In this document: one piece after another, positions 4,578 through 48,103 of the stretch
How positions within the stretch are numbered: position 1 is the first letter of the stretch
Layout: the number at the start of each line of letters is the position of its first letter
NCBI GenBank assembly: GCA_020632555.1
Contig: JACKFI010000002.1
Location: forward strand, 130,621 to 194,620
Origin: Candidatus Omnitrophota bacterium
GTDB lineage: Bacteria; Omnitrophota; Gorgyraeia; Zapsychrales; JANLHA01
Length of the DNA stretch: 64,000 nt
Reading direction: 5' to 3'
Notes under the pieces: model-generated
What the model was told of the DNA's origin: nothing
The model's input: only the letters and a program-made list of their open reading frames with translations
Database searches by the model: none
Made by a program: the position numbers and the translations under genes

Positions 4578-4624
4578 CCAAATTAAAAATGTCCTAGTTT
4601 AACCAAATTAAAAATGTCCTAATT
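4578..4624. repeat. tandem direct repeat, 2 copies, period 25
   Basis: ccaaattaaaaatgtcctagtt (4578-4599) and ccaaattaaaaatgtcctaatt (4603-4624). The pair abuts the 3' end of the ISNCY-like transposase remnant. Confidence 0.85.
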
Positions 4625-5850
4625 TTAGAAGTTTCGTAAGCTCCCTTTGAGCTTAAACCCGTTGCGCCAATATGACCCCCTAGGCGGCACATATCGCGGC
4701 AATCTTTTGACCTTTTTGACAACGGCAACCTTAACCTCTGGCTGCGGCCGTTGGTCTATCGGTTTAAACGCTAATGGCTGCTTCCCATACTTGATCGCCA
4801 GCCGGCCATTTAAATACTCAAAAACTACCACCTGCCGAGCCCGCGTTTTATCTGTCACCTGATACAACCGGCGTTCATGCAACACGGTTCGGTCATTGCG
4901 TAACACATGCCCTGTCTGTACGGACAATATCTCGTCGAGTTTAACGCTCTTATCAATCGGCCGATGCATATCACCCAACAACCGCGCTACTACCTAAAGC
5001 GCTTATTAAACTTCGGCAAATACGTTTTTAAGAATGCGTTGGCTTCTTCACAACTCTTAATCCCGGCCAACCGCATCTCTTTAACCAACCGGTCTTGCAA
5101 TGTCTTAAAAACACGCTCGATGCGTCCCTTGGCCTGCGGACTATGCGCATGAATAACTTCGATCCCAAGTTGCTTACATGCTCGCTCAAACTGCGTCAGC
5201 TCTTCTTTGTCCTCAAAATCCCAATTCGCATAGCGATATCTTTTTTTAGCATTGCTTTTTATACGTCGCATGCTTATCAAGATACAATTGCACCGGCAAT
5301 CCATACTTCTGGGCGTAAGACTTTAACCCGCCATCGCCGGTTTGGTCCCCTCATACTCAAGAACAACCCATCAAAAATTACTCGTTGCGTCGTCGATAAA
5401 TCCCATCAAGACCAACTTCGGTCCTCGGTCTTCCAGCCAAAGATGATGACTCCCGTCCATCTGCACCATTTGCCCAAACCGTTCCCTTACGGGCTCGCCA
5501 ACTGCGCTCTTTAACTTTTCGACGCTTGCCCTCATGCCATAATCCTTCTGCTATCAGCCACAGCCGCAATGTCTCATCACTAATCTTAATATGATCTAAT
5601 TCCCAAAGTTTTTTCGCTGGCTAAAAAGTGGACCAAATCCCTTGTATCGCTCACGGTACAAACCCAAAATCCTTTCACGTACCGCTTTGGCAACACTACG
5701 CCGTCCTTTGCATCCTCGCGATCGGTGGATGACTCCGCGTTCTCCTTCCTTGCGTACCCGTCGGACAATCCGCCTGATCTGTCGATCACTTAATTCTATG
5801 GGAATGATACCATTGATCCTTACCCCTGATCCCAGCGGAGGCGATGAAAA
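4625..5850 (-). mobile_element. decayed ISNCY-family IS: DDE transposase pseudogene split by several frameshifts and stops, N-terminus truncated
   Basis: Fragments in three frames. The HTH region reads 'LSDRQIRRIVRRVRKEGERGVIH...YKGFGPLFSQRKL' (5590-5800). Next comes 'ISDETLRLWLIAEGLW...KRRKVK' followed by 'MVQMDGSHHLWLEDRGPKLVLMGFIDDATS'. The rve core is 'LTQFERACKQLGIEVIHAHSPQAKGRIERVFKTLQDRLVKEMRLAGI' (4990-5304). The C-terminus is 'GDMHRPID...RTVLHERRLYQV' (4625-4981). Confidence 0.7.
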
Positions 5851-6179
5851 TTTTATGTATTACGGATGAAGCATTTAAAAATATTAAAGAGGCTTACCAG
5901 GCCTTTTGCCAGGGCCTTAGAGGTCGATTACCCAAAAGATCGTTGAACCCTAGCCCCATTAGGGGGGAGAGTTTATTAGTACAAAAACAACCCGTCCTTA
6001 AGAAAAAACATTTTTCGGATTATGAACCCAGCAAAGCGATTTACCTCAACGAATGTGATTATCGCCGCTGGTGCCGCGTTAAGCGAATGGTTTAACCAAT
6101 ATGGATCTGATTCTGAATATTAAAAATCTATGAATTAAATAAAAATGGACACATAATAGCTCCTAAAATCCTTGGCGGG

Positions 6180-7300
6180 ATGAAAGGAGTGAAAAAACTT
6201 ATGTGTCCGTACAAATATTATCATGTTATGAGACAAAGCAAAGATAAAAAAATCTTACGTTACCAGATGGTTCTAAAGGCTCTAGCGCTGGGCGTCAAGC
6301 CCACAGCCAGACTTTTTAATACCAGCGCGCCTGTGGTCCGTAAATGGTCCAAGCGTTTTAAGACTGACGGTTATCTTGGATTAAACGACCGCTCCCACAA
6401 ACCCCACTATTCTCCCGGTGCCACACCCGAGCCTATAAAAAGTTTATCATCGATCTAAAGGGCAAATATAAGCGTTTGGGCGCAGAACACATTCGAAACT
6501 TAGAAGGTTTAACTTATGCCCCTAAAACCATGCGCAAAATCTGGAAAGAGGCGGGTATCCCGTCGAGAAAGAGACCCAAGAAACATGTCACAAAGAACAA
6601 CCTGCGCGCCGTAAAAATGCTCTTTAAATTATTCGAGCAATCCATGGAGGACACCAAAGACCTCATGGATATCCCCGAATACTATCTCCAAGCTAAAATG
6701 CTTAATCTGCCAAAAGTGCAATATACTTTTTCGGGAAGTCTCCTGCGGAATTCTTTTTACCGGCTTTGCCAATAATCTTTCGCTAACACATTCACAATTA
6801 TTTGCCGTCTATATCAACCACTTCCTCAAGAAATTTAGCGCTCTGCCGAAATCGGCTATGCGACAAACTGATAATGGCAGCGAATTCATCGGCGCTTGGA
6901 ATGCTAAAAAATCTTCTGCCTACACCAAGACCATCGAATCTGTGCCCGGCCAATGGCACAACACAATTTTCCCGGTGCACATCGCATGCAATCTGACGTC
7001 GAGACGATTCACAATCTCATGGAGATGGAATTCTTTGAGATTGAACAATTCAAGAATCAATAGGGCGGACTTCTTTAACAAAGCCACGTCCTATCAATTA
7101 TTCTTCAACCTGCATCGCACAAACTCTTACAAAGAACACAAAACACCTTGGCAATTAGCCCAAGAAAAGAAACCAGATTTGGACAAACGCTTACTGATGG
7201 TTCCTCCAGTCGATCTCGACAAACTACTCAACTGGAAATTATCACTTACTCATTCGAAGGGGGGTAACGATCACTTGACCGTTCCCTCATTTTTTGTGGC
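6180..7300 (+). mobile_element. decayed IS481-like IS: integrase-core transposase pseudogene, at least 3 frame breaks
   Basis: N-terminal HTH is 'ARLFNTSAPVVRKWSKRFKTDGYLGLNDRSHKPHYSPGATP' (6180-6458). The middle fragment spans 6476-6775. The DDE core is 'RQTDNGSEFIGAW' with the tail 'SYKEHKTPWQLAQE...PPVDLD' (6858-~7290). Frames differ between the pieces. This is the only plus-strand coding remnant in the window. Confidence 0.65.
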
Positions 7301-7329
7301 GGTTTTTTGCCCCAATCGCAACAGCACGC

Positions 7330-9726
7330 TCACCCTAAGCGTGTTTGAATATCCTCCGCCGAAATCGCCTTTGAAAAAAAGAACCCTTGTCCGGCATCAC
7401 AGCCATAACGTGTCAAAAAGTCCAGCTGAGCTTGTGTTTCAATACCCTCACCGGTCACCGAATACCCCAAACTGTGCGCCATCACAATAATCGCTTTGAC
7501 AATCGCCGCTTTATCAGGATTCTCAATAATGTCGTGAATAAAACTGCGGTCAATTTTCAATTCATCAATCGGAAAAAGCTTCAAACTGTTCAAAGAAGAA
7601 TACCCAATGCCAAAATCATCAATCGAAATCTTGATGCCCATCGAACGAAATTCATTGAGAACCGCGATGCTCAAAGAAACATCCTTCATCGCGATCGATT
7701 CAGTGATTTCAACCGCCAGCATATTGCCGTCGCCTTGACTTTCCTTCAGAAAGTTTTTAATCGTCCCCACAAAATTCTTTTGCTCAAACTGCTTGGCTGA
7801 AAAATTAACCGCCACGGGAACAACCGCTCGCCCCTGATCACGCCAGAGCTTGACCTGCTGACAAACCGTGCCCACCACCCAATTGCCAATGGTTGAAATC
7901 AACCCCGCTTCTTCCGCCAAGGGAATAAATTCAGCGGGAGTCACAAGTCCACGACGAGGATGATGCCAGCGCATCAGGGCTTCCAAACGAACAATTTTTT
8001 TGGTTGCCAAAGAAACAATGGGTTGATAATAAATAACAAATTCTTGCTTTTCCAAAGCATTGCGCAATTCCGCCTCCATTTGCAAAGAAGCCATCGCGTT
8101 TTTATGCATGGTCGTGTCAAAGACTTGATACCGCGCTTTTCCCAAAGCTTTGGCGCGATACATCGCAGTGTCCGTATCCCGCAAATAATCCGCCGGCTGA
8201 TTGGCTGTTGGATTGCTCAAAACAATCCCGATGCTGGCGGAAATATAAATTTCTTGGCCGGCAATCAAAAACACCGGCTTTAATGCGTTTAATATTCTCT
8301 CTGCCAACTCGGTCGCGTCACTGACATCGGTAATTTCATCCATCAAAATAATAAATTCATCGCCACCCAAACGGGCAACGGTATCCATCGTGCGCAAGCA
8401 CATTTGCAAGCGATGACTGATCGCCACCAAAAGCTCATCGCCTTTGGCATGCCCGAGGCTGTCATTGACATTTTTAAAACGATCCAAATCAACAAAAAGC
8501 ACCGCGAATCGATGCTCATGATGACGACGATTGCGTTCAATCAAACGTTCCAAACGGTCTAATAATAACGAACGATTAGGCAAAGCGGTTAGAACATCAT
8601 GAAACGCTTCATACTGCAGCCGTTCCTCAGACTGGCGCAGACTGTCCATCATTTCATTAAAACTGCGGCTCAATTGACCGATTTCATCGTCAGAAAAAAT
8701 CTCTGCCTTGGTCGTCAAATCTCCTGCTGAAACCCGTCGGGTGGTATTGACCAAACGTTTGATCGGGCGAGTGATATTGTGCGCCACAAAAAACGCGCTG
8801 ATCATGACACTACCCAAAATCAACAAAGAAATCCAAATCGAATGCATCAGCGTCATTTGCAATTCTTTGACAAAAAGCACCTGCGGAATACGCATGGTCA
8901 AATGAAACAATACCGCGCCGCCCTTGCCGACATTCATCCCATGTTCAAACGAATACCACTGCGCTGCGTCATCTTTCGAATCATCAGCTGCCGTTACCGT
9001 AAGCGACTCTTCACTGTTTCCCGAATACAATAAGGTCTTGCGATCAACACTATAAACAGAAGAAATCGACGTCCCGCGGAATCGGATTGTTGAAAGATAC
9101 CGAAAATACGGGGTCAAATCACAATGAAAAATCACCGCTCCGCCAAAACCGCCGGCGTCTGGATCGCGCTTGGACACACCAATCAAGAATGTTGTCTTAT
9201 TCTTATCTTGAAACGGACCTTCAAAAAGCATCAACCCCGAGGGCATATGTTCCAGCCGTTTAAACAAAGAATACAAACGGTCATAAAACTCACTGGGAGG
9301 ATGACTGAGCATCGAAGTATACTGATGAATGCGCCGATTCCCTTCAACAACAATTTCTTCCTTGCCTTGGCTGTTGATAAAACGCGCGGACAAATATTTG
9401 GTGCCGGCACTTTTTGTAAAATGCAAAAACAATTTTTCCGCATTAGGCTGGGTCAGATAAACTTCATTATTTTCCGACATCAAAAAATTATTTAACAGCG
9501 GTGTCGTCGTGATCAACTCCAAATCATTGCTGATTGTCTGGCTATAAAATTCTTCAAAATACCCTATCGCCTTGCCAAACGAATGCGCCACCTGGCCTTT
9601 GACATCCTTTTCAACCCATGTGCGGGATAATTCATAATGACTAATGGCCGAACAAAAAACCGCCACGATCCCGACGCCCAAAAATGCAATCAAAAGCTTT
9701 TTAAAAACAGTCAGTTGTATTTTCAT
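7330..9726 (-). CDS. membrane sensor diguanylate cyclase/phosphodiesterase (periplasmic sensor-HAMP-GGDEF-EAL)
   Basis: 798 aa with two TM segments flanking a ~270-aa periplasmic region. HAMP is 'ITRPIKRLVNTTRRVSAGDL'. GGDEF motif is 'RLGGDEFIIL'. EAL motifs are 'RLEALMRW' and 'DDFGIGYSSL'. Confidence 0.9.
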   Translation of the reverse strand: MKIQLTVFKKLLIAFLGVGIVAVFCSAISHYELSRTWVEKDVKGQVAHSFGKAIGYFEEFYSQTISNDLELITTTPLLNNFLMSENNEVYLTQPNAEKLFLHFTKSAGTKYLSARFINSQGKEEIVVEGNRRIHQYTSMLSHPPSEFYDRLYSLFKRLEHMPSGLMLFEGPFQDKNKTTFLIGVSKRDPDAGGFGGAVIFHCDLTPYFRYLSTIRFRGTSISSVYSVDRKTLLYSGNSEESLTVTAADDSKDDAAQWYSFEHGMNVGKGGAVLFHLTMRIPQVLFVKELQMTLMHSIWISLLILGSVMISAFFVAHNITRPIKRLVNTTRRVSAGDLTTKAEIFSDDEIGQLSRSFNEMMDSLRQSEERLQYEAFHDVLTALPNRSLLLDRLERLIERNRRHHEHRFAVLFVDLDRFKNVNDSLGHAKGDELLVAISHRLQMCLRTMDTVARLGGDEFIILMDEITDVSDATELAERILNALKPVFLIAGQEIYISASIGIVLSNPTANQPADYLRDTDTAMYRAKALGKARYQVFDTTMHKNAMASLQMEAELRNALEKQEFVIYYQPIVSLATKKIVRLEALMRWHHPRRGLVTPAEFIPLAEEAGLISTIGNWVVGTVCQQVKLWRDQGRAVVPVAVNFSAKQFEQKNFVGTIKNFLKESQGDGNMLAVEITESIAMKDVSLSIAVLNEFRSMGIKISIDDFGIGYSSLNSLKLFPIDELKIDRSFIHDIIENPDKAAIVKAIIVMAHSLGYSVTGEGIETQAQLDFLTRYGCDAGQGFFFSKAISAEDIQTRLG

Positions 9727-41814: not shown

Positions 41815-42733
41815 ATTGATTCCTTTTGATCACTTGATACGCTTTAACCAATTCCGCTATTCCCGCCGCCAAAGACACATCCGGTTTAAAACCTGTTTTT
41901 TCAATTTTATCATTACTGACAATATAATCCCGCTTGTCAGGGTCCTCGCCAATAGTCGCTTCCACAAAATAAAAATCTTTGACCTGTTTTTGTATTTCCT
42001 GGCATAACCCCAACTTGCTGATATTCGCATCACTCAAGCCCACGTTATAGGCTTGATTTTTCATTTTCTCAAACTGATTTAAACTGTGACTAAACGCTTT
42101 GGCCACATCGCGCACATGAATAAAATTTCGGTTAAAATGCGCTTCAAACAAAATCACAAACCGATCATACACCGCGCGATAAACAAAGTCATTGACCAAT
42201 AAATCCAAACGCATGCGCGGCGAAACACCAAAAGCCGTCGCTAAGCGCAGCGTAATCCCATTGCCCGCCGCGAGAATGGCGTCTTCGGCTTCCACTTTCA
42301 ACTTGCCATATAGAGAGATGGGACGCAGCGGCGTCTCTTCGGTACAATGTTTGCCCTTTTCACCAACGCCATAACCGCTATTAGTCGTCGGAAAGATAAT
42401 CATTTGATTTTTACTGCGCAATTCCAAAATCAATTCAACCGCATCCAAAAGAATCGATTGTGCTCCAATCGGATCTTTGGCACATAAAGGCGCGCCCGTT
42501 AAACAAGCCAAAGGAAAAATCGCATCCACATCTTTAAGCAATTTTGTCATCAAACTTTTATCGCGCGTATCGCCACGAACAATAGTCAAAGTAGGATAAT
42601 AACAGACATCTAAAAGAGACGTCTGGTTGTACATAAAATTGTCTAAAGCAACAATCTCATGACCTTCAGCCAAGAACCGCGGAATCATCACAGACCCCAA
42701 ATATCCAGCCGCACCGGTGATTAAAATCTTCAT
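41801..42733 (-). CDS. NAD-dependent epimerase/dehydratase (extended SDR)
   Basis: 310 aa. It carries 'ILITGAAGYLGS' and 'YGKLK' (YxxxK). Confidence 0.8.
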   Translation of the reverse strand: MKILITGAAGYLGSVMIPRFLAEGHEIVALDNFMYNQTSLLDVCYYPTLTIVRGDTRDKSLMTKLLKDVDAIFPLACLTGAPLCAKDPIGAQSILLDAVELILELRSKNQMIIFPTTNSGYGVGEKGKHCTEETPLRPISLYGKLKVEAEDAILAAGNGITLRLATAFGVSPRMRLDLLVNDFVYRAVYDRFVILFEAHFNRNFIHVRDVAKAFSHSLNQFEKMKNQAYNVGLSDANISKLGLCQEIQKQVKDFYFVEATIGEDPDKRDYIVSNDKIEKTGFKPDVSLAAGIAELVKAYQVIKRNQYANI

Positions 42734-42782
42734 AAAAGAATTTCCTTTCTTAACATGCCTGCTTTAATCAAAATGTTTTTTG

Positions 42783-42890
42783 TTTTGCCACAAACCCTTC
42801 GGCTCAATGAACGGTCCCTGGTCGATGTCCCGCCTAAAGGCGGGAGAAATTCAGGGCTGCGTTCAATTCGCCGTTGGGCTTGCGGCAAAA
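42783..42890. repeat. 108-nt GC-rich imperfect palindrome / structured intergenic element
   Basis: The 31-nt arms (42783-42813 and 42860-42890) are complementary at 24/31. They enclose a CCCTG...CAGGG helix and a perfect hairpin CCCGCC-taaa-GGCGGG (42829-42844). The element lies between two co-oriented sugar genes. Confidence 0.8.
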
Positions 42891-42901
42891 CAAACACATC
42901 C

Positions 42902-43807
42902 CTAAATCATCTGCTGAATACCTTCTTCTAACCCAATCTTTGGCTGCCAACCCAAATTTTTCATACGAGAACTATCCAAAAGTTTTCGCATCGCTCCGTC
43001 TGGTTTGGAAGCATCAAATTCAATTTGGCCTTGATAACCCACCTGTTTAGCAATCATCTTAGCCAAATCTTTAATCGTAATATCTTCGCCAACACCAACA
43101 TTGATCAATTGATCCTCATTGTAATTTTTCATCAAAAATACACAGGCATCGGCAAAATCTTCACTAAACAAAAACTCACGCTTAGGTTTACCGGTTCCCC
43201 AAAGGGTTACCTTTTTCTGGTTATCCTCCTGAGCTTGAAAAAATTTCCCCAACAATGCACCCAAAACATGCGCATTTTGGCTGTCGGTATCCGCTTGTGG
43301 TCCGTATAATGTTGCAGGAACCATCGCAATCGCGTTAAATCCATATTGCCGTCGATACGCCCGGCACATTTCAATACCAGCAATCTTGGCTACCGCATAC
43401 GGTTGGCTGGTCGGCTCTAAGGCTCCCGTCAAAAGATATTCTTCTTTCATCGGCTGAGGACAAGCTTTGGGATAAACACAAGAACTGGCAATAAAAAGCA
43501 GTTTCTTAACTTTGCTTTTATAGGAGGTATGAATGATATTGTTTTGGCTTTGCAAATTCTCGTAAATAAATTCCGCACAATATCTCTGATTAGCCTCGAT
43601 GCCGCCAGAACACGTTGACGCTAAGAAAACATACTCAGGTTCAATCTCGCCAAAAAACTTTTCAACTTGCTGCTGATTAAAAACATCCCATTTCTCTGGC
43701 CCGGCAGAAATCACATTCTTAAAACCACTTTCAACTAGATGGTCATACAACGAATGTTCGACGATATCATTATGTCCGACGATAAGAATGCGCGATTGTT
43801 TCTTCAT
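42902..43807 (-). CDS. GDP-L-fucose synthase-like 3,5-epimerase/4-reductase (Fcl family) with an atypical dinucleotide-binding loop
   Basis: 301 aa, collinear with E. coli Fcl as I recall it ('SSCVYPK', 'PYAVAKIAG', 'MVPATLYGP', 'FDASKPDG'). The N-terminal GxxGxxG loop instead reads 'GHNDIVE'. Confidence 0.7.
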   Translation of the reverse strand: MKKQSRILIVGHNDIVEHSLYDHLVESGFKNVISAGPEKWDVFNQQQVEKFFGEIEPEYVFLASTCSGGIEANQRYCAEFIYENLQSQNNIIHTSYKSKVKKLLFIASSCVYPKACPQPMKEEYLLTGALEPTSQPYAVAKIAGIEMCRAYRRQYGFNAIAMVPATLYGPQADTDSQNAHVLGALLGKFFQAQEDNQKKVTLWGTGKPKREFLFSEDFADACVFLMKNYNEDQLINVGVGEDITIKDLAKMIAKQVGYQGQIEFDASKPDGAMRKLLDSSRMKNLGWQPKIGLEEGIQQMI

Positions 43808-43899
43808 AAAACTATTCGACTCTCCCCAAAATATCTCTTAAGCACACCCAACACCTTAAAAACTTTTCTCTCTTTTTAAAAAGGGATTCAGGGAAGCTC

Positions 43900-44451
43900 C
43901 TATTTCAGATTATAATAATTCCCGTGCTCAATGAGCATCGTCGAGCGGCCATCAGGCCGCTCAAAAGCATGTTTATACGCAGGGAAGATTTCTTCTGGTT
44001 CATTGAGTTCAATCACATCAATGGTGGTAAATAAATTACGAAAAGCATTGGCGTAATTGCCAACATGCTGATGTCCCGGGTGAACCGGCGCATCAGGTCC
44101 AGCGGCCACGCGAATCAACATCTTGGGCATCACCTGTCCGCCGCTAATGGCTGGGATTTTGTCCAACATATTGGTCATGTCAGATGTCGCCAATAATAAA
44201 AAATTCTGACGCGGATAGACGGAAATAGGAACATAACCCGCCAAAGCCATGCCAATTGAAAACTGCATTTGAAAACTTTCATTAATCGGCATTTCCAATG
44301 CGCGCTCCGGCGGACAATCCCGCAATGTTTGAAACATAAATGTCCCCGGCCCGGCCACAGTTTGTCCCACAAACATCGCTTGCGGCTGAGTCGCCAGCCA
44401 TTCCATCGTGCGCTTTAATTCGTCGAAATATTTCACCTTATCATTCTCCAA
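43900..44451 (-). CDS. ThDP-enzyme pyrimidine-binding subunit (E1-beta-like, truncated to the Pyr domain)
   Basis: 183 aa. 'MFVGQTVAGPGTFMFQTLRD...ALEMPINESFQMQFSIGMALAG' parallels the N-terminal domain of E1-beta or transketolase. The start is the TTG at 44451 or the GTG at 44436 (GGAG upstream). Confidence 0.6.
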   Translation of the reverse strand: MENDKVKYFDELKRTMEWLATQPQAMFVGQTVAGPGTFMFQTLRDCPPERALEMPINESFQMQFSIGMALAGYVPISVYPRQNFLLLATSDMTNMLDKIPAISGGQVMPKMLIRVAAGPDAPVHPGHQHVGNYANAFRNLFTTIDVIELNEPEEIFPAYKHAFERPDGRSTMLIEHGNYYNLK

Positions 44452-44466
44452 TTAAAGAATTCATAT

Positions 44467-44796
44467 TTAAAAAACCTTATTAATCCACTTTCTTAACTGC
44501 GGCAAACGGTTTTTGATAACCATCCAAACGATGACAACATCAACACCCATATAGTCATGGATCAAAACATCCCGCATCCCAGCAATTTTCTGCCATTCAA
44601 TATTGGGATACTGATTTTTAAATTCTTTATCTATCTTCTTCGCGGCTTCGCCAATAACTTCCAAGTTGCGAATGACCGCATCCTGCACCATCTTATTCTT
44701 CAAAAATTCCGACTCTTTTAAACCACGAGTGTAACTTTCAATATCCTTAATCGCATCCGCAATATGATGCAAATAAACCTTATTATCGTGACTCAT
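44467..44796 (-). CDS. hepT: HepT-like (DUF86) RNase toxin of a type VII TA pair
   Basis: 109 aa with 'RDVLIHDY', the Rx4HxY active-site motif. Its ATG overlaps the MntA stop (ATGA). Confidence 0.85.
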   Translation of the reverse strand: MSHDNKVYLHHIADAIKDIESYTRGLKESEFLKNKMVQDAVIRNLEVIGEAAKKIDKEFKNQYPNIEWQKIAGMRDVLIHDYMGVDVVIVWMVIKNRLPQLRKWINKVF

Positions 44797-45086
44797 AAAT
44801 AAACGGCCTCACGCAAAACCTGCGCACGAATATATCGGCTTAAAGATCGCGGCGTTGCGACATCAACCTTTTTCTTCAATAACTTCTCTAAATCCTGCTT
44901 GAGGCCGACCTGATCAAAAAGATCAGCATTTTCTTCAAACTCGACCAAAAAATCCAAATCGCTGCCGCGTGAAAACCGGCCCGTTGCATAGGAACCAAAA
45001 AGTGCTATTCTTTTAACTTTGTTTAATTTAAGGGCACTTTTAAATTTTACTCCGCTAAAAACCACGTCTAAACGCTTTAGAATCAT
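44793..45086 (-). CDS. mntA: MntA-like minimal nucleotidyltransferase antitoxin
   Basis: The ATG at 45086 has a perfect AAGGAG Shine-Dalgarno; the track's TTG at 45101 is rejected. 'ALFGSYATGRFSRGSDLDFLVEF' matches the GSx9-10...DxD nucleotidyltransferase motif. Confidence 0.85.
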   Translation of the reverse strand: MILKRLDVVFSGVKFKSALKLNKVKRIALFGSYATGRFSRGSDLDFLVEFEENADLFDQVGLKQDLEKLLKKKVDVATPRSLSRYIRAQVLREAVYL

Positions 45087-45097
45087 ATAGTTCTCCT

Positions 45098-45718
45098 TCA
45101 AAACTTAATCAATTTACCCAAACCTGAATGGGGATAACCATTCACATACTGAAAATAAATAATCTTGGATTCGTATTTGGTTGCTTTAAACCACGGATCT
45201 TCGCTGCCCCACACATCCCGCGTCTTGGTCATAACGCTCAAACCATTGTCGCAAACAATAAACTTAACCGGCAAATCAAAATTATACGCATATTTTACCG
45301 CTTCGAAAAAAATCCCTGTTTCCGACGACATTTCTCCACAAAACAAAAATGCTCGCCCGGACTTGCCTTGATTCTTCAGCGCCCAAGCAACACCCGTTGC
45401 GGTGCCCATCAAACTGCCAACGATGCCGGAACAAAGAACTTTGTACTTAGGAAAACACAAAGAAATACTTTTGCCATCCAAAATCGCTTGTTTCACTTCT
45501 TCGCGCGGCACACCTTTTAAAAGCGCCAACTCATGCGCATCCCAAAAACCAAAAATATAATCATCATCGCCAATATTTTCTTCACGGAAAATTTTAATCA
45601 ACTGATCCTCGCGCCCCGCACGCAAATGCACCGGAGCCCGAATCGCGCCGGTCGCAAAAACATCCGCAATCTCTTGTTCAAACGTCACCAAATCTTCTTT
45701 AGTCAACTGTGTTTTCAT
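45098..45718 (-). CDS. ThDP-binding subunit (E1-alpha-like, truncated)
   Basis: 206 aa. It carries 'APVHLRAGREDQL', 'GIVGSLMGTATGVAWALK', and the ThDP motif 'CGEMSSETGIFFEAVKYAYNFDLPVKFIVCDNG' (GDG...NN type). Confidence 0.65.
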   Translation of the reverse strand: MKTQLTKEDLVTFEQEIADVFATGAIRAPVHLRAGREDQLIKIFREENIGDDDYIFGFWDAHELALLKGVPREEVKQAILDGKSISLCFPKYKVLCSGIVGSLMGTATGVAWALKNQGKSGRAFLFCGEMSSETGIFFEAVKYAYNFDLPVKFIVCDNGLSVMTKTRDVWGSEDPWFKATKYESKIIYFQYVNGYPHSGLGKLIKF

Positions 45719-45829
45719 AAGACTCTAAACCCTTCACAAAGTAATAATTAATAATCCCCCCGCCAACGAAAGAAATACGTGCCATTATGAAATAATCTCG
45801 AATTATTCGCAACCCCAATTCAATATTTA

Positions 45830-46780
45830 TTACTTCTCGTCGCAACAATTCGCTTTAAACCAAGCCAAGGTTTCTTGCAATCCTTGTTGAAGACTAACCT
45901 TTGGCTGCCATTGCAAATGTTTCTTTGCCAAAGTGATATCCGGACACCGTTGTTTGGGATCATCCACCGGCAAATCACGATAAACCAATTTGCTGTGTGC
46001 CCCTGAAAATTTCAAAACCATGTTCGCAAATTCCAAAATGGTGAATTCTTTGGGATTACCGATATTCACCGGTTGATGCAAATTTGAATACAATAAACGC
46101 ACAATCCCATCAATCAAATCTGAATAATAACAAAAAGACCGTGTTTGTTGGCCATCGCCATAAATCGTCAGCGGCTGATTATGCAAAGCTTGATCAATAA
46201 AATTAGGAACAACGCGGCCGTCATTGACTTGCATGCGCGGCCCGTAGGTGTTGAAAATGCGCACAATCGCCGTATTAACGTCATACGAACGATGATAAGC
46301 CATGGTGAGCGCTTCAGCAAAACGCTTGGCTTCATCATAAACACTGCGCGGCCCAATAGAGTTGACATGCCCCCAATAGGATTCTTTTTGCGGATGTTCC
46401 AGCGGATCACCATAAATTTCAGAAGTCGATGCAACCAAAAAACGCGCTTTTTTCAATTGAGCCAATTTTAAACAATGTTCTGTTCCCTGTGATCCAACCT
46501 TCAAAGTCGCTAAAGGGTGTCGCAAATAATCCACTGGACTGGCCGGTGAAGCAAAATGCAAAACATAATCCACCTTCCCCGTTATGGTCCAAGGCCGGCA
46601 CACGTCTTTTTTGATAAACTCAAAGTTTTTATTTTTTCGCAAATGCGCGATATTGCGCAAACTCCCCGTTATCAAATTATCGGCCGCAATCACCCGGCAA
46701 CCATCAGCCAATAAACGATCGCACAAATGACTGCCTAAAAATCCCGCGCCACCGGTAACAACAGCTATTTTCTTTTTCAT
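45830..46780 (-). CDS. UDP-glucuronate decarboxylase (UXS/ArnA-C-terminal-like SDR)
   Basis: 316 aa. It carries '[16 protein letters not shown]', 'STSEIYG', 'YDEAKR' and '[10 protein letters not shown]'. Confidence 0.8.
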
Positions 46781-46801
46781 TTCAACGATCCTTAATCAAA
46801 T

Positions 46802-48103
46802 TTACAACTTTACAATTTTTTTATGATTCAAAGCCCCGTACACATTACGGGTATCAAAAATCATTTTCGCCGACTTTAGAATCAATTGATAATTGACCTG
46901 ACTATGATCGGTGGCAATCACCACACAATCAAACTCGGCCACATTTTTTCCTGTCAAATCAGTCGCCGCCAGATCAATGGCGCCGATTTTCAAATACGGA
47001 ATAATCGGATCATAATATTCAACCTTAGTTCCCTTACCTTGCAATAATTCAATCAAGCGCAAAGGCGGAGATTTACGCAAATCTTTAACATCTTTTTTAT
47101 ACGTCACGCCAATAATTAAAATTTTTGCGTTCTCAAGAACCTTATTATGCGATTTAAGAATAGCTTGAATGCGCCCAACCGCATAAGCCGGCATCGACGA
47201 ATTGGTATCCGCGGACAAGCGAATGTATTTCGAATTAAAACCATACTTGCGCGCTTTCCAATGCAAATACAAAGGGTCATCGGGAATACAATGACCGCCT
47301 ACCCCCAGCCCCGGATAAAAAGGCATGAAGCCAAATGGCTTTGTTTTGGCTGCCTCAATCACTTCCCAAATATCAATATTCAATTTATGGCACATCATGG
47401 CCAATTCATTGATCCATCCGATATTGACAATTCGAAATGAATTCTCCAGAAGCTTGGTCATTTCCGCGGCATCTGCGGAAGAAACCAAATGTACTTCTTT
47501 GATAATCGTTTGATAAAACAACTGGCTCAACTGCCCGCTTTTCTGATCAATCCCGCCGACAATTTTAGGAATACGGGTCACATCATATTTTTTGTTGCCC
47601 GGATCAATGCGTTCCGGCGAAAAAGACAAATACAATTCTTTGCCAACCATCATGCCCGATTTTTCTAAAACTGGCTTGACCAATTCCCGCGTTGTTCCCG
47701 GATACGTCGTGCTTTCCAGAATAACCAAGGTGTCTTTTTTAATATATTGATCAATCAATTTAACAGCATTAACAATAAAAGAAACATCCGGCGTGTATTT
47801 GCGACGCAACGGAGTAGGAACACAAATCATAATCACATCCGCAAATTTAAGCAAAGAAAAATCTGTTGACGCCATCAAGCGGCCGTTATTGACCACCGTT
47901 GTCAAATCTTTGGCTGTGATATCGGCAATATAATTTTTTTTAGTCTGCACGCGCTGGACACGATCCACATCCATATCCAACCCATAAACTTTAAAACCAA
48001 CCTTGGCAAAACTCACCGCCAAAGGCAGTCCTACATAACCAAGACCCAAGACTGCGACAATGGCTTTTTTATTGTGAATTTTATTTTTTAAAATTTTTGA
48101 CAT
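46802..48103 (-). CDS. nucleotide-sugar 6-dehydrogenase (UDP-N-acetyl-hexosamine dehydrogenase type, WecC/TviB-like)
   Basis: The ATG at 48103 is preferred; the track's TTG at 48136 is rejected. It carries 'VLGLGYVGLPLA' and 'GLGVGGHCIPDDP' (catalytic Cys). Confidence 0.8.
   Translation of the reverse strand: MSKILKNKIHNKKAIVAVLGLGYVGLPLAVSFAKVGFKVYGLDMDVDRVQRVQTKKNYIADITAKDLTTVVNNGRLMASTDFSLLKFADVIMICVPTPLRRKYTPDVSFIVNAVKLIDQYIKKDTLVILESTTYPGTTRELVKPVLEKSGMMVGKELYLSFSPERIDPGNKKYDVTRIPKIVGGIDQKSGQLSQLFYQTIIKEVHLVSSADAAEMTKLLENSFRIVNIGWINELAMMCHKLNIDIWEVIEAAKTKPFGFMPFYPGLGVGGHCIPDDPLYLHWKARKYGFNSKYIRLSADTNSSMPAYAVGRIQAILKSHNKVLENAKILIIGVTYKKDVKDLRKSPPLRLIELLQGKGTKVEYYDPIIPYLKIGAIDLAATDLTGKNVAEFDCVVIATDHSQVNYQLILKSAKMIFDTRNVYGALNHKKIVKL

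Follow-up and report, generated by a model that had tools for sequence, protein, structure and literature searches.

A MntA/HepT toxin-antitoxin cassette between the subunit genes of a mini E1-like enzyme in a Candidatus Omnitrophota nucleotide-sugar operon

The 64,000-nucleotide stretch analysed here (the window, part of contig JACKFI010000002.1) comes from a Candidatus Omnitrophota metagenome-assembled genome (MAG) and carries a MntA/HepT toxin-antitoxin (TA) pair between the genes for the alpha-like and beta-like subunits of an E1-type thiamine diphosphate (ThDP) enzyme. As far as motif and fold can tell, the pair is an intact, ordinary short class I MntA/HepT module. The favoured reading, which is held to be reasonably probable, is that of a selfish, promoter-less class I HepT/MntA cassette that was inserted between alpha and beta of a nucleotide-sugar operon and is expressed by read-through. 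The order on the minus strand is E1-alpha-like, MntA, HepT and E1-beta-like, and the features concerned are the following (evidence in brackets):

45098..45718, minus strand: E1-alpha-like ThDP (pyrophosphate-binding) subunit, 206 aa (profile search, sequence matches)
45087..45097, minus strand: 11-nt spacer AGGAGAACTAT with the Shine-Dalgarno sequence of MntA (read directly in the sequence)
44793..45086, minus strand: MntA minimal nucleotidyltransferase antitoxin, 97 aa (profile search, motif, orthologue start)
44467..44796, minus strand: HepT (HEPN/DUF86) RNase toxin, 109 aa (profile search, motif, structure model)
44437..44466, minus strand: 30-nt HepT-beta spacer with the TGGAGAA Shine-Dalgarno sequence for beta (sequence, relatives)
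43900..44436, minus strand: E1-beta-like pyrimidine-binding subunit, 178 aa from GTG 44436 (profile, sequence matches)
44441..44890, minus strand: high-identity block, made up of mntA in its 3' third, the complete hepT and the spacer (nucleotide comparison with lineage L003)

The pair and the enzyme around it

Class I HepT/MntA systems are defined by an RX4HXY motif in the toxin, which combines the RNase site with the AMP-acceptor Tyr, and a GSX10DXD motif in the neighbouring antitoxin (PMC7641770), and both are present here. MntA belongs to PF01909 (E 6.8e-17, 62.1 bits) and HepT to PF01934 (E 4.9e-32, 110.6 bits), each far over the Pfam cut-off, and the gene for the minimal nucleotidyltransferase (MNT) lies upstream of that for the toxin, as expected for toxins of PF01934 or PF08780. 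In MntA, the motif covers residues 31-45 (G31-S32-YATGRFSRGS-D43-L-D45) and aligns with Shewanella oneidensis MntA and with 1WOT, while the HepT motif (R75-DVLI-H80-D-Y82) aligns with that of S. oneidensis HepT, its R75, H80 and Y82 being invariant across 40 homologues. The fold points in the same direction: an AlphaFold2 model of HepT (pLDDT 89.4, pTM 0.83) was compared with the PDB by Foldseek, and the top 13 matches are all HepT/HEPN toxins (TM 0.63-0.75, probability 1.00), the best being S. oneidensis 5yep/6m6u and Aphanizomenon flos-aquae HEPN 7ae6/7ae8 (TM 0.70-0.75).

The genes are tightly packed. Eleven nucleotides (AGGAGAACTAT) separate the TGA of alpha from the ATG of MntA at 45086, and the AAGGAG Shine-Dalgarno sequence of MntA takes in the last base of the alpha stop codon. 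This ATG agrees with the starts of the orthologues, and a longer MntA open reading frame (ORF) reading from TTG 45101 is probably not used. The stop codon of MntA and the start codon of HepT overlap as ATGA at 44793-44796. A preliminary description of the window, made from the sequence without database searches, had already recognised the position of the pair, its families and motifs, the 11-nt gap with its overlapping AAGGAG and the ATGA junction, all of which are borne out; it had put the gap between HepT and beta at 15 nt, and this figure has to be corrected. Indeed, the beta of every relative begins M-K-Y-F-D-E-L-K, a start that corresponds to GTG 44436 in the window, and therefore beta is taken to start there and the HepT-beta spacer to measure 30 nt, although the ORF can also be read from an upstream TTG at 44451. 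The TGGAGAA sequence is kept in all four cassette-bearing lineages, in three of which the start of beta has switched from ATG to GTG.

Outside coding sequence, the 11 nt upstream of mntA are all that is available, in line with the earlier remark that a promoter dedicated to the TA pair would find no room there. TA genes are usually laid out as a two-gene operon that stands by itself and has a promoter of its own. The only promoter-like site near mntA (45072-45044) falls inside mntA and none lies upstream of it; a scan of 42700-47000 for promoter and terminator consensus sequences returned counts at or under shuffle expectation and is hence uninformative. Because there is neither non-coding room for a promoter nor a promoter or terminator signal above chance, the cassette would be transcribed by read-through of the operon, without a promoter of its own. 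MntA would then be translated from its own AAGGAG, translation of HepT would be coupled to that of MntA through the ATGA overlap, and beta would be re-initiated from the TGGAGAA in the 3' flank of the cassette. At the protein level, MntA is predicted to oligo-AMPylate Tyr82 of HepT and so to silence its RNase activity.

The boundaries of the window cassette, read by eye, have no target-site duplication and no terminal inverted repeats. Rfam gave no match, either in the region (E up to 1) or in the whole window (gathering threshold). An integron cassette, which would carry an attC site of about 55-140 nt at its 3' end and have an integrase nearby, was considered and rejected, since the 30 nt between the HepT stop and the beta start leave no room for attC and no integrase-like ORF is found nearby. 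An assembly artefact was rejected too, as the same arrangement occurs in two independent Logan assemblies of the strain and in three other lineages. The two Logan contigs (L001 and L002), which come from different sequencing runs and carry the exact alpha of the window, both break off after about 186 nt of beta, suggestive of a branching between strains at that position.

The enzyme split by the cassette is itself reduced. Alpha matches PF00676 (E1_dh, E 2.7e-11) and aligns only to positions 7-179 of the 300 of the Pfam profile, that is, to its first 60%. The pattern looked for in an E1 alpha was a ThDP/Mg-binding motif of the GDG-X(24-30)-NN type, and alpha has it in a variant form, G128-E129-M...D157-N158-G159, which aligns with the motif region of pyruvate dehydrogenase (PDH) E1-alpha 1w85; across 22 homologues G128, D157, N158 and G159 do not vary, and position 129 is occupied by either D or E. 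Beta reaches 20.7 bits against PF02779, under the 27-bit Pfam cut-off, and matches PDH E1-beta models of NCBIfam at 5e-8 and E1-beta chains in the PDB, including 1ik6, at 4e-7. Its cofactor-activating Glu lies in P50-I-N-E53, aligned with P-L-N-E of E1-beta 1ik6, and the C-terminal transketolase_C domain is missing. Neither subunit is full length (206 aa vs about 320-370 for alpha, 178 aa vs about 325 for beta), and no characterised homologue of this size was found for the pair. Judged by these alignments, alpha and beta are a truncated 'mini' E1-like heteromer and not a canonical E1 of PDH or of branched-chain ketoacid dehydrogenase (BCKDH).

The locus set used for comparison was drawn from 80 Omnitrophota genomes, each representing one species, and from 70 metagenome contigs (JGI), all encoding an alpha homologue. 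Beta is the next gene after alpha, at a median distance of 4 nt, in all 140 Omnitrophota loci that have both, and the two are therefore partners, as had been proposed together with the suggestion that their adjacency be checked in relatives. At the protein level the pair is 72-90% identical across the 80 species (L003-L082).

Distribution of the cassette and of other inserts

Within this set, and with ENA contigs included, an orthologous cassette at the alpha/beta site is confined to the window strain (L001 and L002 included), L003, L009 and the ENA contig L086. It is thus limited to a clade of nine species, where three of the nine have it together with the one metagenome contig; neither the 71 species further away nor any of the 70 JGI metagenome loci carries it. 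The six cassette-less species of the clade keep both alpha and beta. In five of them (L004, L005, L007, L008 and L024, with alpha 87-89% identical) a spacer of 10-17 nt without any scar precedes a beta that starts with ATG, while the sixth carries a hairpin element in the spacer. In relatives without the cassette, alpha and beta lie between a few and about 20 nt apart, and therefore the cassette is an insertion, an origin that the preliminary description had offered as one of two alternatives.

HepT homologues more than 73% identical occur solely at the alpha/beta site. The next relative (73%; L083:1-1397, also L084 and L085) lies downstream of dnaN, behind the gene for a 110-aa membrane protein; in L083 the TA pair is embedded in housekeeping genes, tightly packed and with overlapping starts and stops. 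Related Omnitrophota pairs are also found between fabG and fabZ/ligA, co-directional with these genes and beside other variable ones, and a 62%-identical HepT relative sits in an AbiE/PLD defence island. The earlier expectation that TA pairs avoid such places is accordingly weak for Omnitrophota, given the pairs after dnaN and between fabG and fabZ.

The junction has received other material as well. Two metagenome lineages (L108:3613-4821 and L158:215-1349) carry at alpha|beta an unrelated MNT of 128-132 aa with a HepT of 158 aa (RGFRNILVHEY), with a Zn-ribbon membrane protein of 65-74 aa encoded ahead of them; an ATGA overlap joins the stop of HepT to the start of beta in L158. A Zn-ribbon protein stands there alone in L061 and L132. 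In L093 (1963-2199) the junction holds only an orphan 78-aa Unstab_antitox protein (PF09720, E 1.9e-13), likely the remnant of a different type of TA, and in L078 (685-1341) the gene for a secreted, DUF5640/lipocalin-like signal-peptide protein follows directly after alpha. The gene for a signal-peptide protein also directly follows alpha in L092 (3619-4021), on a contig that ends before beta. Some inserts are non-coding: the spacers of L006 (6619-6718), L034 (6607-6751) and L081 (3365-3573) have in common a two-hairpin repeat element, ATGAGCCC-hairpin-GGGCGAATTAACCCC-hairpin-GGGG, which resembles miniature inverted-repeat transposable elements (MITE) or repetitive extragenic palindromes (REP). 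The alpha|beta spacer of L017 contains a different element with long inverted repeats, and in L025 a small ORF lies between inverted repeats.

MNT/HepT pairs are also found at the neighbouring junctions. A third lineage, with an MNT of 107 aa and a HepT of 118-120 aa, occupies beta|epimerase in L050 (7242-7914), L065 (7235-7910) and L025 (5068-5743). In L050 all junctions of the cassette are ATGA, and the outer 4-nt overlap is the same as that by which beta directly meets the epimerase in some genomes without a TA pair, so that these overlaps may have arisen through microhomology-mediated insertion or through compaction afterwards. In L062 (6148-7371), two tandem pairs led by a nucleotidyltransferase separate the two epimerase genes of the operon: the first consists of a Pfam-confirmed 109-aa nucleotidyltransferase and a 56-aa ORF, a candidate truncated HEPN, and the second is full, with a 99-aa MNT and a 111-aa HepT. 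All MNT/HepT cassettes and TA inserts at the three junctions are co-oriented with the operon. The idea that alpha|beta is an unusually hot insertion site finds no support in the junction counts, inserts of at least 600 nt being present in 5/140 loci at alpha|beta, 14/118 at UXS|alpha and 11/115 at beta|epimerase. The inserts at alpha|beta are never pathway genes, and those at beta|epimerase are mostly a GT2 glycosyltransferase or a methyltransferase. A literature search for MNT/HEPN pairs within polysaccharide clusters returned nothing specific.

The surroundings of the cassette in the window include two genes of the UDP-glucose/GDP-mannose dehydrogenase family, a UDP-glucuronate-decarboxylase-like short-chain dehydrogenase/reductase (SDR), two more SDR epimerases/reductases and a B12-binding radical-SAM enzyme, and the region is therefore regarded as a nucleotide-sugar cluster. 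The window is largely one long co-directional gene array, in which about 48 of the 52 ORFs of at least 150 aa share the minus strand and are separated by short gaps. The sole stretch without long minus-strand genes is 4600-7500, where broken ORF fragments of integrase-core (rve-type) and helix-turn-helix type occur on both strands and resemble what one or two decayed insertion sequence (IS) elements would leave behind.

Selection, exchange and competing explanations

In comparisons with the window, mntA and hepT have ratios of non-synonymous to synonymous divergence (dN/dS) of 0.046-0.095 at dS 0.4-1.5, and both are therefore under purifying selection. The corresponding dN/dS values of the pathway genes are 0.03-0.11, rough figures because dS in the flanks is near saturation (the proportion of synonymous differences, pS, being 0.70-0.73); raw pS and nucleotide identity were used instead. 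Among alpha, beta, the UXS-like SDR and the downstream epimerase, alpha and beta have the lowest dN/dS (0.03-0.06). At the same time hepT is disrupted in two of the five copies, by a TAA at codon 27 in L009 and by a 1-nt deletion near codon 23 in L086, and MntA is intact in both.

The divergence is uneven along the locus. Between the window and L003, pS is 0.44 +/- 0.045 for the TA genes and 0.70 +/- 0.03 for alpha plus beta, and positions 44441-44890 reach 89-93% nucleotide identity, vs 67-86% in the flanks and 5' mntA. The hepT copies of the window, L003 and L086 agree at about 90% identity, yet the alpha of L003 is as distant as that of L009. The simplest reading of these alignments is that the toxin half of the cassette has been exchanged by recombination between lineages. 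The genes that flank this block in the window, L003 and L086 are about 77% identical between lineages.

On the favoured reading, the module would be a selfish element, gained and lost again, that is maintained through addiction and lateral exchange and adds nothing to glycan chemistry. It would be taken up at a permissive spot, leave no lasting mark on its neighbourhood, have its toxin pseudogenised and then be lost. As documented by Belot et al. 2026 (PMC13617665), TAs are as a rule gained, undergo pseudogenisation of the toxin and do not stabilise their neighbourhood. The proteins themselves are ordinary short class I HepT/MntA of an already known family. What is mildly unusual is the position between co-dependent subunit genes, with apparently borrowed transcription, as well as the repeated, independent capture of MNT/HepT cassettes by one operon. 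Since genes in Omnitrophota are arranged in long co-directional arrays, any insert will look operon-embedded, which lowers the surprise.

Several points count against the selfish, promoter-less cassette. A promoter may lie within the alpha coding sequence, the consensus scan being uninformative. Purifying selection over a dS of about 1 also fits a benefit to the host. The hepT disruptions of L009 and L086 come from MAG or low-coverage contigs (2.6x for L086) and could be errors, and the high-identity hepT block might reflect constraint at the nucleotide level instead of recombination. In a neighbour-joining tree of alpha plus beta, the cassette genomes are interleaved with TA-less members of the nine-member clade, the tree being short and unbootstrapped, so that it does not fix the number of gains and losses. 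Finally, the class assignment falls just short in NCBIfam, where NF047751 (HepT) scores 59.3 and NF047752 (MntA) 54.3 bits vs cut-offs of 60.

The alternatives differ mainly in what the cassette would do for its host. It might be kept as a guard of the locus, with addiction in the form of post-segregational killing protecting alpha and beta, or the whole operon, from deletion or replacement. Such a role would suit a cassette that is under purifying selection and wedged between co-dependent genes, from which a clean deletion must be precise, in a phylum reported to have hyper-variable polysaccharide cassettes (bioRxiv 10.64898/2026.05.20.726742). The distribution speaks against it, as alpha and beta are kept in 140/140 loci, nearly all of them without a TA pair, and remain intact in the six of the nine closest species that lack the cassette, five of these having short scarless spacers; moreover, chromosomal TAs have been found, in experimental and comparative work, not to conserve their neighbourhoods (PMC13617665). 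Protection of the locus is thus considered quite unlikely, and the earlier suggestion that the pair stabilises the operon finds no support in these observations. An equally doubtful proposal is co-option, in which the TA pair would be slaved to transcription of the operon and HepT would have a regulatory or sensing role, for instance through RNA cleavage upon shut-off or through tuning of the alpha:beta stoichiometry. The missing space for a separate promoter, the conserved translation signals and the location of the beta Shine-Dalgarno sequence within the cassette flank are in its favour, as are the independent MNT/HepT lineages at three operon junctions, always co-oriented and some with ATGA on both sides; in addition, HepT occurs downstream of alpha in eleven loci (the window excluded) and in none of the upstream flanks scanned (about 1.1 Mb in total). 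A co-opted function is difficult to reconcile with a cassette present in three of the nine closest species and in none of the 71 more distant ones, with a toxin disrupted in two of five copies and with a spacer shared by non-TA inserts (a lipocalin-like protein, Zn-ribbon membrane proteins, hairpin elements). In addition, alpha|beta is no more insertion-prone than the neighbouring junctions, and nearly all genes of the window are co-directional, so that inserts look operon-embedded. The co-option to glycan synthesis put forward in the preliminary description is disfavoured by the same patchy spread, toxin disruption and unrelated inserts. A combination of the two ideas, in which the cassettes are slaved to the operon and HepT senses transcription shut-off or locus loss and so guards a hyper-variable surface-glycan locus, arises because at least three unrelated MNT/HepT lineages were captured at three adjacent junctions, co-oriented, apparently promoter-less and some with ATGA overlaps; it is likewise given little credence, and if true it would represent a class of 'operon-embedded' TA not yet described.

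An anti-phage abortive-infection module that lies by chance in a surface-glycan operon is also rather unlikely. MntA matches the PADLOC candidate defence family PDC-S09 (E 1.9e-25), the 62%-identical HepT relative is part of a defence island, and HEPN RNases are common in defence systems (PMC3710099); on the other hand, HepT has no PADLOC match, the window has no further defence genes near the cassette, and PDC-S09 is merely a candidate family. It is scarcely conceivable that the window pair is a decayed, non-functional remnant. The disrupted orthologous toxins of L009 and L086 would point that way, but both window ORFs are full length, R75, H80, Y82 and the GSX10DXD motif are all present, dN/dS is below 0.1 and the structure model is confident (pLDDT 89).

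Significance and relation to known systems

Collectively, these data indicate that a TA module can insert into a spacer of a few nucleotides between subunit genes that have to be co-expressed, last there for long (synonymous divergence around 1) and be cleanly lost. Ribosome-binding sites come with the cassette, whose promoter is apparently that of the operon, and it offers a natural example, in an uncultured phylum, of the cycle of TA acquisition and erosion. It raises the hypothesis that promoter-less cassettes parasitise conserved operons, and for annotation it means that selfish inserts can mislead inference from gene neighbourhoods. The view of how HepT/MntA works is unchanged by the window pair.

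The prototype of type VII TA systems is HepT/MntA of S. oneidensis (SO_3166/SO_3165; PMC7641770; PDB 5yep, 6m6u, 7bxo). The window pair shares with it the order of an upstream MNT and a downstream HEPN gene, the families PF01909 and PF01934 and motifs that align residue for residue, and S. oneidensis HepT is the best structural match of the HepT model (TM 0.70-0.73). The window proteins are shorter (97 and 109 aa for MntA and HepT, vs 139 and 133 aa) and about 22% identical to their counterparts, and whereas the S. oneidensis genes form a free-standing two-gene operon, the window pair lies inside a biosynthetic operon, with 11 nt of non-coding DNA upstream. In its short format and its acceptor Tyr at position 82 it is closer to HepT-CL1/MntA-CL1 of Thermococcus cleftensis, where Tyr82 is AMPylated (PMC7641770), and the best PDB sequence match of MntA is the 98-aa minimal nucleotidyltransferase 1WOT of Thermus thermophilus (E 4e-13); from these short class I pairs of archaea and thermophiles it differs in phylum and genomic context. 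The HEPN/MNT system of A. flos-aquae (PDB 7ae2, 7ae6, 7ae8, 7ae9) has the same HEPN fold (TM 0.66-0.75), and by analogy with it oligo-AMPylation would be the expected way of neutralising the toxin; its proteins are longer and 15-17% identical.

The flanking genes have parallels of their own. For the E1-alpha/beta-like pairs AviB1/AviB2 and Pau11/Pau12, attachment of a two-carbon branch to sugars has been proposed (PMC4753412). Compared by description, they are likewise E1-like pairs in a nucleotide-sugar pathway, beside a UDP-glucuronate decarboxylase-like gene, and differ from the Omnitrophota proteins in that the latter are truncated mini forms. A two-carbon branch role for the enzyme flanking the cassette may be taken from this analogy as a lead only.

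The cassette resembles the 'spots' and the acquisition-erosion model described for chromosomal TAs (PMC13617665), with their patchy presence among close relatives, independent acquisitions at one place, toxin pseudogenisation and neighbourhoods that are not conserved in the long term. The spot seen in the window is set apart from these in being a spacer, with a median of 4 nt, between the subunit genes of one enzyme, and in holding a cassette that has no recombinase or mobile-element gene nearby and is apparently promoter-less.

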